In this document: positions 9,989 through 50,979 of the stretch, one piece after another
How the letters are laid out: the number at the start of each line of letters is the position of its first letter
Numbering within the stretch: the first letter of the stretch is position 1
The notes under the pieces: model-generated
Databases searched by the model: none
Told to the model about the DNA's origin: nothing
Seen by the model: the letters and a program-made list of their open reading frames with translations, nothing else
Assembly (NCBI GenBank): GCA_963835065.1
Contig: CAWIEK010000041.1
Location: 32,001 to 96,000, forward strand
DNA: 64,000 nucleotides
From: an uncultured Chthonomonadaceae bacterium
GTDB lineage: Bacteria; Armatimonadota; Chthonomonadetes; Chthonomonadales; Chthonomonadaceae
Reading direction: 5' to 3'
Position numbers and translations under genes: made by a program

Positions 9989-10048
9989 GGGTCCAATCTT
10001 CCAATCTGTACAAACAAGACAAAAAGAGCAAAATAACACGGAAAAAGC

Positions 10049-10076
10049 GAAACTTTTGCTCGATACGTCCGTCTAA
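10049..10076 (+). promoter_or_regulatory. ECF-sigma-type promoter (copy A)
   Basis: GAAAC-N16-CGTCTAA. The boxes and spacing are conserved in copy B while the spacer sequence diverges. Confidence 0.6.
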
Positions 10077-10081
10077 ATACT

Positions 10082-10280
10082 AGAATAACGTCTACTATAC
10101 AGACGTTATACATACAGGAAGGGAGGTGCCAGTCCTATGTTTCACCCCTCCCGTTCGCCCTGACGCTTACGAGGCCACGACGCCTCTCTCCTACAACTTG
10201 ACACAACGAGACATCGGGCTGGAAGCGCTGCATTGCCAAGATTTCGACGATGACTCTACATACTCTTTTTTCTACATGCC
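10082..10280 (+). ncRNA. Candidate structured small RNA / micropeptide transcript (copy A)
   Basis: 127-nt core (10137-10263) has 6 mismatches and no gaps versus the reverse complement of 50452-50578. Hairpins show G-U-preserving changes and the 3' end is T-rich. Confidence 0.55.
10137..10163 (+). CDS. Candidate 8-aa micropeptide MFHPSRSP (copy A)
   Basis: SD AGGAAGGGAGGT 9 nt before ATG. Identical ORF in copy B. Confidence 0.35.
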   Translation: MFHPSRSP

Positions 10281-12374: not shown

Positions 12375-12450
12375 TTTCGCGTCTTTCGCGGTTCCCTCGC
12401 TCCTAATCTTTTCTCTGTGACCCCTCTGTGTCTCTGTGTCTCTGTGGTGC
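12375..12450. repeat. Intergenic short tandem repeats (TTCGCG and CTCTGTG types)
   Basis: TTTCGCGTCTTTCGCGGTT and CTCTGTGACCCCTCTGTGTCTCTGTGTCTCTGTGGT. A similar TTCGCG..TTCGCGGTT occurs near 62305. Confidence 0.5.
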
Positions 12451-12489
12451 AAGTTTCTTACTCTTCTTTGCGTTCATTCGAGGTTACTT

Positions 12490-13528
12490 ATGCCAACCGA
12501 CTCTGTTCTGCCTTTGTGCCTGACCGCCTATAGCCTGCCGCATACGATGGGCTATGTGAAAACGCGCGACGATGCGCCCAATGCCGCGCCCCTGACGCCG
12601 CTTGGCCTAGCGGATTTAGCCCGCGATTTGGGACTGGCGGGCGTGGAACTGCCGCTTGCCGCTCGCGTCCCCTCGTTCAACGGCCAGATTGTGGAAGCTG
12701 CAGGCGTCCCGGACAATTTTCCTGAAGAACTGGCGTCCCGGAATTTAAAACTGGTGGCGGATTACGGCGCGCTGCTGGATTACGACGCGGCGCATACCCG
12801 CGCTTATCTGAACAAGGCCGCGCAGGAGGGCGCAAAAGTCGTGCGCGCGATTTTAAGCCATTTGCTGTGCGGCGACCGGCGTAAAATGGCAGGCGGATGG
12901 GACGCGCACCGGGACGCGATTGCCGTGCGCCTGCGCGAACTGCTGCCGTATGCCGAAGACAAAGGCATAATTCCTGGCATTGGAAAACCATCAGGACGCG
13001 ACAACCGAAGATTTCTGGTGGCTGTATGAGCAGACGGGGCAAAGCGCGGCGTTCGGCGTCACGCTCGACACGGGCAACCCGCTTTCCGTCGGACAAGACC
13101 CCGCAGAAGCGGCGCGGCAACTGGCTCCTCTCATCCGGCACGTGCATCTAAAAGATTATACGATGCACTTTGCGCCCGAAGGCTTTCGGCTTGTACGCTG
13201 CGCGGCCGGGGAGGGCGTGATTGACTTTCCGGCCATTATGAAAGCCGTTCGCGCCAACGGCCATGACCTGCTGCCGGGAATCGAAATCGCCGCGCAGCAG
13301 ACGCGCACCATTCCGCTTCTGGAACCCGATTGGTGGGAACATTACCCGGTCAGAACTACGGACGCGCTCATTCCCGTCCTGCAAATCCTGTGGGCAAAGG
13401 GCAGGCCGCAAAACGAACCCTATTCCAGCGCGTGGGAGCGTGGCGAGGGTTCCGAAACGGTGAAGCAGGAAGAATTAGACGTGGTTCGGCGCAGCGTGGC
13501 GTACTTCCGCTCACTGTCAACAACATAA
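12490..13528 (+). CDS. Sugar phosphate isomerase/epimerase (xylose isomerase-like TIM barrel), frameshift near 12970
   Basis: GLAGVEL, then ENHQD, LDTGN, HVHLKDY and GEGVIDF in the joined frames. Confidence 0.85.
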
Positions 13529-50354: not shown

Positions 50355-50435
50355 ACGCTGATAGATCTTAGAGCGCAAGGGTATTTTAGGTTCGTAAATC
50401 TATCCTTCCCGAATCGGTGGAAGCGTTGGACAAGC

Positions 50436-50628
50436 GGCAGGTAGAAAAAAGGTATGTAGAGTCATCGTCGAAATCTTGGCAATACAGCGCTTCCAGCCCG
50501 ATGTCTCATTGTGTCTGGTTGTAGGAGAGAGGCGTCGTGACCTCGCAAGCGTCAGGGCGAACGGGAGGGGTGAAACATGGCTCTGCACCTCCCTTCCTAT
50601 GGATAACGCCTTGTAGTAGACGTATGTA
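50436..50628 (-). ncRNA. Candidate structured small RNA / micropeptide transcript (copy B)
   Basis: Inverted homolog of 10082-10280. It points at the 3' end of a convergent gene, so it leads no downstream CDS. Confidence 0.55.
50552..50578 (-). CDS. Candidate 8-aa micropeptide MFHPSRSP (copy B)
   Basis: SD AGGAAGGGAGGT 8 nt before ATG. Identical to copy A. Confidence 0.35.
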   Translation of the reverse strand: MFHPSRSP

Positions 50629-50632
50629 CTGT

Positions 50633-50661
50633 ATAGACGGCTGTGTGGTACCAAAGGTTCA
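50633..50661 (-). promoter_or_regulatory. ECF-sigma-type promoter (copy B)
   Basis: TGAACC-N16-CGTCTAT on the minus strand. Confidence 0.6.
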
Positions 50662-50979
50662 CTCTTTTCGCGTTGTTTGGCTCTTTTTTCTGTTTCTTTG
50701 TTTACGGGCTGATTGCTGTTGGCGTCGTGCAAGGCAGGCGAGAATCTAATCGGTTTTTCGGTGCGCTACAGCCCAAACTTTTTCGCGCCAACAATGAATT
50801 TCTTTGCTGTAGGGGCGCTTGCTTGCTGCGCCCGATTCGCCTGCGCGGGTACGAGTTGTCCGACAATGCTTGACGCGAAAACAGGTTGTCAGGCGTATAA
50901 TAGATTGTGCGCGAAATCACAAATTTTTAGATTTTCAGCTTTCAAGTTTCAAAAAGTAAGGGGCATGCCGGTTTAGCCT

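Follow-up and report, generated by a model that had tools for sequence, protein, structure and literature searches.

The question raised by this locus is what kind of genetic element is carried twice in the window, i.e., the whole 64,000-nucleotide stretch of DNA that was analysed. The original prediction described an intergenic unit that recurs in inverted orientation, and the recurrence was confirmed, as the 127 nucleotides of copy A from the ATG at 10137 to 10263 are found again in copy B with 6 mismatches and no gaps. The boxes GAA(A/C)C-N16-CGTCTA are present in both copies (10049-10075 and 50660-50634), and the Shine-Dalgarno (SD) sequence (10116-10127), the ORF MFHPSRSP-stop (10137-10163), and the hairpin at 10171-10186 all lie where they had been placed. 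The parts listed for the unit thus stand, and the description overlooked the R-x-P-stop motif and a larger 3′ hairpin, P2 (10208-10256). The features of the two copies, located from the sequence, are as follows.

10011-10271, plus strand: copy A.
10011-10048, plus strand: A-rich tract of copy A, 5′ of the −35 box, putatively UP-element-like, with an A-rich consensus over 142 copies.
10049-10075, plus strand: putative ECF-type promoter of copy A, with the −35 box GAAAC at 10049-10053, a 16-nt spacer, and the −10 box CGTCTA at 10070-10075.
10086-10108, plus strand: 5′ hairpin of copy A, containing a second CGTCTA motif (10089-10094), assessed by pattern counts.
10116-10127, plus strand: SD sequence of copy A, which can pair with C-rich codons of its own ORF.
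10137-10163, plus strand: micro-ORF of copy A, MFHPSRSP-stop, with the family motif R/H/L-x-Pro-stop.
10171-10186, plus strand: hairpin P1 of copy A, with a 5-bp stem and the loop CACGAC, beginning 7 nt past the stop codon.
10187-10207, plus strand: unpaired, A/C-rich linker of copy A, in which 1-2 nt indels are tolerated.
10208-10256, plus strand: P2-P4 of copy A, a long imperfect hairpin with a near-invariant apical sequence (10225-10238), the helices being recovered in the fold of copy A.
10257-10271, plus strand: tail of copy A, a conserved (A/G/C)CATA followed by a pyrimidine/U-rich tract, likely the 3′ end, with a geometry that is not that of a canonical terminator.
50445-50700 (approximate), minus strand: copy B, convergent with a BadF-type gene.
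50660-50656 and 50639-50634, minus strand: −35 and −10 boxes of copy B, GAA(A/C)C-N16-CGTCTA.
50598-50587 and 50578-50552, minus strand: SD sequence and ORF of copy B.
50544-50529 and 50507-50459, minus strand: hairpins P1 and P2 of copy B.
50384-50411, minus strand: degenerate ISAzo13-type transposon end that faces outward and is located downstream of copy B, with a weight-matrix score of 13.0, which is at the threshold.

Elsewhere in the window, at 12436-13528, a xylose-isomerase-like TIM-barrel gene is apparently split into two frames, and a stretch of one same-genus genome (G002) aligns across it.

What had been taken for a duplication is actually a family of 162 copies in the genome under study (G000), as found by blastn of the core against the whole genome at E ≤ 1e-3. 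This recurrence is far beyond chance, and 152 of the 162 copies are full length. An nhmmer profile search of G000 returned the same 162 copies and just 4 further matches, all with E > 1. The nearest-neighbour identity lies between 0.73 and 0.92 for 156 of the 162 units, and three pairs of copies, 99-100% identical across the unit, are probably segmental duplicates.

The genomes of relatives were searched with a covariance model built on 43 copies. It found 47 copies in G002 and 13 copies on the 6.6 Mb of G001, the second same-genus genome. No copy was found in the other 39 genomes of the family outside the genus or among 150 genomes of the phylum, where the pre-filter of the search passes merely 23-89 candidates per genome, so that remote forms may have been overlooked. 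A laxer run on 37 relatives outside the genus gave one match at E = 0.026, which lies inside a coding region and is due to chance. A pattern scan gave 33 matches in genome contigs, 3 of them chance matches in other phyla, a single chance match in metagenome contigs, and none in viral contigs. The contigs of one sequencing run held related copies only, and blastn against plasmid and phage collections gave no match to the unit. The named records carrying the element belong to Chthonomonadaceae, a family of Armatimonadota. The element family is confined to one genus and is known from genome assemblies. The statement that the RNA belongs to no known family also held, as the window gives no match to Rfam at the gathering threshold; in the E-value mode of Rfam 15, 3 weak matches appeared, the best with 14.4 bits against a threshold of 80. 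The literature searches returned no account of such a repeat in Armatimonadota or of stress minigene RNAs, and none of the titles listed for MITEs and small RNAs concerned this element.

The surroundings of the copies were analysed on our own approximate gene calls. Only 4 of the 162 copies overlap a called gene, and the rest are intergenic. In 101 of 161 cases the downstream gene is read from the other strand, and neighbour families recur at most 7 times, which indicates that the element is the leader of no gene class; no family of transposase-like neighbours was found either. One copy (G000:C53:218943-220730) stands convergent with and directly after the RNase J gene, probably by chance.

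Upstream of 144 of the 162 copies, the strict pattern GAA(A/C)C-N16/17-YGTC(T/A) provides the conserved −35 and −10 boxes at the 16-17 nt spacing of an ECF-sigma promoter, to which type the motif presumably belongs. Genome-wide, 138 of the 187 matches to the GTCTA form of the pattern sit at an element. A second promoter class with a CTTCTAAA core precedes 9 of 40 G002 copies, one G000 copy, and a G001 subfamily. The leader between the promoter and the SD sequence is highly variable and often carries heptamer arrays, and the constant part of the unit consists of the SD sequence, the ORF, the 7 nt, P1, the linker, P2, and the tail. The 5′ hairpin ACGTCT/AGRCGT, proposed as a part of the unit, is confined to a subfamily and not a family feature, as its pattern occurs in only 54 of the 162 copies; a doubled GTCT motif occurs in 147. 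The SD sequence is paired in the local fold of 158 of the 162 copies, the fold being made with no composition control. There are 67 sigma-like matches in G000. A divergent sigma-70-like gene at G000:C56:28723-29470 (L173; also cited as G000:C56:28804) has the element-type promoter pattern upstream, and it is a candidate for the autoregulated cognate sigma factor. Heptamer arrays are abundant in intergenic sequence genome-wide (about 200 doubled matches for each of two units), as are REP-like palindromes (324 and 117 matches), and both often adjoin or sit within the leader of the element.

The reading frame of 8-9 codons begins with an ATG after the SD sequence in 160 of the 162 G000 copies. 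A terminal Pro followed by the stop codon is found in 156 of these 160 copies, as R-x-P in 144, H-x-P in 6, and L-x-P in 6, and the distance from the stop codon to P1 is 7 nt in 150 of them. In the terminal Pro codon, which is CCC in 139 of the 160 copies, positions 1 and 2 are invariant and position 3 alone varies; the sole variation of the stop codon in G000 is from TGA to TAA. The length from start to stop is a multiple of 3 in 157 of the 162 copies, and the P1-P2 linker shows 30 length variants, none of ±3, where the copies are related and the events are not independent. For 41 copies of G001 and G002, the stop codon was sought at fixed offsets, and it lies 7-8 nt before P1 in all 41 (TGA 18, TAA 22, TAG 1), with a terminal Pro in 39 and Arg at position −3 in 35. 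The ORF ends of these two genomes use all four Pro codons (CCC, CCT, CCG, CCA) and all four CGN Arg codons. Exceptions at position −3 include Leu, shared by an old subfamily, and Gly, seen in a single G002 copy, and six G001 copies have longer frames (14-16 codons), mostly with non-ATG starts and in one case with a premature stop. This pattern of variation indicates that the micro-ORF is under coding selection. Because the position of the stop is fixed while the stop, Pro, and Arg codons vary, the selection appears to act on the C-terminal residues and the geometry rather than on a diffusible peptide. The idea of a dual-function RNA or micropeptide can thus be kept as regards a translated micro-ORF, whereas a freely acting peptide is unlikely, since conservation is mainly at the C-terminal end.

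Two other readings of the frame were rejected. Selenocysteine insertion at UGA with a SECIS element is at odds with TAA in 22 and TAG in 1 of the 41 copies of G001 and G002, though tRNA-Sec is present in the genome, and a +1 frameshift is ruled out since indels of 1-2 nt occur, as does a CGA/TGA change in the +1 frame. Besides tRNA-Sec, G000 has tmRNA, and about 17 tRNA genes are packed within 2 kb of one contig (about 430270-432290).

ApdA and ApdP arrest in the register that has RAP at the P site, and a selection for stalling motifs yielded RxPP and R/HxPP (PMC10951233); TnaC, PepNL, and NanCL are known to arrest at stop codons (PMC11890864), and a C-terminal Pro reportedly triggers SsrA tagging at termination (a reference in PMC11890864). 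Because the motif resembles these arrest and stalling motifs and arrest at stop codons has precedents, pausing of the ribosome at R-x-P-stop is likely.

The RNA fold was examined by a covariation test in which 43 copies were compared with 500 shuffles and with slid controls. In the proposed helices, 92.2% of the alignment cells pair, and the covariation score is 0.143 compared to 0.103 in the shuffles, none of which reach it, and at most 0.075 in the slid controls. P1 and P2 covary modestly: two of the five covariation measures fail to beat the shuffles (93/500 and 115/500), and most of the two-sided base changes belong to a single G001 subfamily of 4-5 sequences, so that independent events are few. 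In P1, 99.1% of the cells are paired, and one pair shows a two-sided change. The G-U pairs fall on the sense strand in the 43 copies; the folding z-scores are weak, and the sense strand is no better (−1.71 versus −2.19). As the changes are mainly those of one subfamily, two measures fail, and the z-scores are weak, the helices are probable rather than proven. The near-invariance of the P1 loop and the P2 apex suggests that they contact a binding partner. No partner protein was found, and an antisense-target scan of the genome gave 5 one-mismatch matches elsewhere for the invariant loop and none for the P1 pattern. Taken with the neighbour and ORF data and the absence from Rfam, the covariation supports the original prediction that the unit is a structured RNA gene, present in many copies, that stands alone and has a translated micro-ORF.

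G001 and G002 have an empty site in place of copy B, with about 500 nt absent between conserved genes. Many copies with terminal inverted repeats and target-site duplications had been named in advance as the mark of a MITE, and this was found in part. Outward-facing ISAzo13-type ends flank 43 of the 162 copies, with a right end downstream in 35, a left end downstream in none, and a left end upstream in 12; both ends are present in only 5, the conserved unit itself has none, and 119 copies are without any such end. TTA stands on both outer sides in two of the five two-ended composites, and elsewhere there is no pair of ends to define a duplication. No terminal inverted repeats bound the unit of copy A, and the ends of the unit are ragged; lacking terminal repeats of its own, the unit does not qualify as a plain MITE. 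A PF07592 transposase is present in G000 and G002 and was not found in G001, and just 2 of 40 G002 copies have ISAzo13-type ends, which indicates that these ends explain one sublineage. ISAzo13-family elements lie at G000:C41:162050-163410 and C53:451920-453290, and G000 also contains a family of short MITEs with ISAzo13-element ends, often enclosing a REP-like palindrome.

The age of the sites was assessed by synteny for 40 G002 copies, 36 of which have orthologous flanking genes. Eleven G002 junctions are syntenic in G000, where 7 of them are occupied, and of 71 flank orthologues, 25 are no more than 1.5 kb away from a copy, compared to 422 of 5591 genes overall, which indicates that many sites are old. 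For the orthologous sites at which a partner is present (12 of 14, one of them doubtful), core identity is 0.79-0.88 between the two genomes and 0.88-1.00 with the best paralogue in the same genome. Because orthologous copies are less alike than own-genome paralogues, the family shows concerted evolution, in which copies become overwritten at their sites and each genome homogenises its own set. The diagnostic 4-mer AAGA, for example, occurs in 153 of the 162 G000 copies versus 2 of 40 G002 copies, and the promoter class and the peptide class may differ at one orthologous site. An enrichment of the element at breakpoints is suggestive only (25 of 36 element junctions are non-syntenic versus 47 of 95 other gaps of at least 300 nt). 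Decayed copies are nearly absent, with one truncated among the 47 in G002; this clearly broken copy, of which the 3′ half alone is joined to REP-like sequence, lies at L217:230-330.

The spacing of the copies was evaluated from 105 neighbour gaps and 2000 random placements in intergenic gaps. The coefficient of variation (CV) of the spacing is 0.74 compared to 1.00 at random (1 of 2000 draws is as low), and 4 gaps below 10 kb were seen compared to 27 expected (0 of 2000). Five other repeat families, used as a control, have CVs of 0.91-1.15 and show no evenness. Convergent neighbours are nearer than divergent ones (medians of 21 and 48 kb, p = 0.0008), a difference that was noticed post hoc; a paired test of upstream and downstream spacing was not significant (n = 69, p = 0.28). 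No leading- or lagging-strand bias was found by local GC skew. Local hopping was rejected, as neighbouring copies are no more alike than random pairs.

Among the explanations considered, we tentatively prefer, at somewhat less than an even chance, an RNA gene under an alternative sigma factor, in which a ribosome paused at R-x-P-stop shields a structured 3′ RNA acting by dosage. Transcription from the predicted alternative-sigma promoter is very probable, and so, to the same degree, is translation of the leader of 8-9 codons. The pause at termination on Arg-x-Pro-stop is rather probable; with the P site holding Pro and the A site holding the stop codon, the 7 nt would place P1, at +14, at the mRNA entry of the paused ribosome. 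The ribosome would then shield the folded 3′ RNA from 5′-to-3′ decay by RNase J, a match to which is found in the genome above its cut-off; ribosome protection against RNase J1 and stabilisation of transcripts by bound ribosomes are described in the cited part of PMC7509114. Given these steps, it is close to an even chance that the output acts in trans by dosage, where the invariant P1 loop and P2 apex of all copies, fired together by the sigma factor, would titrate a protein. As DNA, the copies would have two routes of spread, namely capture between ISAzo13-type ends, in one sublineage, and recombination or gene conversion from copy to copy. Against this reading, a simple dosage sponge fails to account for the even spacing, which is left unexplained together with the convergent/divergent polarity, and gene conversion by itself can keep copies alike.

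An explanation that dispenses with benefit to the host is a selfish hitch-hiking module, in which the RNA serves the spread or persistence of the element and its intactness reflects selection among donor copies. The outward-facing ends, including the five composites with TTA on both outer sides of two, the empty site orthologous to copy B, the overwriting of orthologous sites by other subfamilies, and the larger copy numbers in the two genomes with PF07592 transposases all speak for it, and ssr9, which uses the ISPpu9 transposase, offers a precedent in the cited part of PMC12288879. We nevertheless regard it as unlikely, considering the 119 copies and nearly all of the G002 copies that lack an end, the failure to find an IS110 transposase in G000 or G001, and the near absence of decayed copies. 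Spread occurs by DNA, since the promoter, upstream of the predicted start, is copied too, and spread at the DNA level gives no reason to select the ORF or the RNA fold. The same selection on codons and pairing in the interior largely refutes the reading as an ordinary MITE or a neutral repeat, in which the promoter, the ORF, and the folds would be remnants of a parent transposon. This reading, which would fit the high copy number, the intergenic and partly empty sites, the nearby IS ends, and the cognate PF07592 transposase, is highly improbable in view of the ragged unit without bounding repeats and the lack of a transposase-like neighbour family. Least credible, and hardly to be entertained, is a retron-driven bacterial SINE, i.e., a dispersed template RNA for a type XIII retron reverse transcriptase (RT). 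It was suggested by a type XIII retron with no ncRNA directly before the RT (classification in the cited part of PMC7736814), and one such RT is carried by each of the three genus genomes. Upstream of the retron operon, however, lie 2-3 tandem msr-msd-like units of its own, and 62 of 401 phylum genomes match the RT query. Among them are G020, G024, G191, and G193, in which the RNA model gives no match, and 28 RT loci give no element match better than E = 1.8.

The ribosome itself might be the target, if sequestering ribosomes or peptidyl-tRNA-Pro were the output and 160 minigenes, switched on by the sigma factor, throttled translation for stress or dormancy, the 3′ RNA merely stabilising the complex. 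The R-x-P-stop motif with its fixed geometry and the predominance of CCC as the last codon would suit this; overexpression of TnaC depletes tRNA-Pro according to the cited part of PMC11890864, and a frame of 8-9 codons would leave no space for a second ribosome. Yet the last codon varies among genomes, so that the target is not one particular tRNA, the 3′ loops vary less than stability alone would demand, and some G001 frames are longer, which makes the idea quite unlikely. The even spacing, its absence from the five other repeat families, and the post hoc difference between convergent and divergent neighbours would be explained by a chromosomal landmark acting in cis, a site strongly transcribed and anchored by a ribosome, required roughly every 50 kb, that would delimit supercoil domains or serve to load a DNA-tracking protein. 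With just 13 copies in G001, none in the other searched genera, and no significance in the paired test, this is doubtful to a slightly greater degree, and loss of close pairs by recombination could likewise thin the short gaps. Beyond the preferred reading of a ribosome-shielded RNA acting by dosage, the element might represent a new class, a self-contained RNA gene with a single ribosome parked on an R-x-P-stop leader that resists rescue. Kept intact at up to 162 evenly spaced positions, it would let one stress sigma factor switch on a chromosome-wide lattice of RNAs with bound ribosomes, which stores ribosomes and marks domains, while recombination between copies reshuffles the genome; this is a speculation, and improbable as a whole.

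The retron operon of G000 (G000:C50:52485-60450, minus strand; L127, L128, L129) consists of ARM/HEAT, SWIM-BRCT, and RT genes. The nearest copies of the element are about 8-11 kb from the RT gene and not contiguous with it, and the element was rejected as the msr-msd, the operon having its own units. G000 and G002 have three of these tandem units and G001 has two, and the long hairpin differs from unit to unit. The G000 ARM gene lies in three frames (L127:8000-11750), owing to frameshifts or assembly errors, and is intact in G001 and G002; at 30 RT loci, the end of the SWIM gene is within about 200 nt of the RT gene. Another RT gene, at G000:C49:681100-683500 (L108), stands beside small Cas2-like and Cas1-like frames and is probably part of a CRISPR adaptation module with an RT, where the Cas frames were named by eye and the RT by a PADLOC match.

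The family is strongly constrained, and it fits neither a MITE, a RAPP leader, a retron RNA, SECIS, nor any Rfam family. Few sRNA families of bacteria are known to have more than several copies, and a repeat in high copy number is usually a transposon shell in decay. In this family of 162 copies, the promoter, the frame, the stop-to-hairpin distance, and the pairing remain intact, the spacing is even, and evolution is concerted. Sibling sRNAs and protein-sponge RNAs such as Csr/Rsm, Qrr, and 6S likewise have their own promoters and stand alone, and they act by dosage, as the element would. The element differs from them in having no Rfam match, about ten times as many copies, and an obligatory translated leader. 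With MITEs that carry promoters, ORFs, or sRNAs, such as Correia, QMITE, and BOX/RUP, as far as the cited part of PMC10969869 describes them, it shares a dispersed, intergenic, high-copy distribution, empty sites, and some copies between IS ends; unlike them, it lacks terminal repeats, its ends are ragged, its promoter, frame, and pairing are under purifying selection, and its spacing is even, which raises the testable question of what maintains the even spacing of a bacterial repeat. The ssr9 sRNA of ISPpu9 is also an sRNA gene with extra stand-alone copies and a borrowed transposase, but it has 8 copies rather than 162, IS110 rather than ISAzo13 ends, and, in the cited part of its description, no micro-ORF (PMC12288879). 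The 5′ stabilisers at which a ribosome blocks RNase J (the ermC leader, hbs, STAB-SD), in the cited part of PMC7509114, share the strong SD sequence, a possible stalled ribosome at the 5′ side, and the presence of RNase J in the genome; those guard an mRNA, whereas the protected part of the element would be a non-coding RNA.

The RAPP-like arrest peptides (ApdA, ApdP, SecM RAGP) share with the element an Arg two residues before the P-site Pro (cited part of PMC10951233), and TnaC, PepNL, and NanCL, which arrest at their own stop codons, share the format of a short upstream ORF (cited part of PMC11890864). In the element, unlike these leaders, a stop codon takes the place of Pro in the A site (R-x-P then stop in 144 of 160), the peptide is just 8-9 residues long, no regulated gene follows downstream, and there are 162 copies. 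The family thus provides more than 200 natural variants of a minimal R-x-P-stop motif that can be tested in a cell-free system, and these bear on the minimum length of a termination-arrest peptide and on how a paused ribosome escapes rescue.
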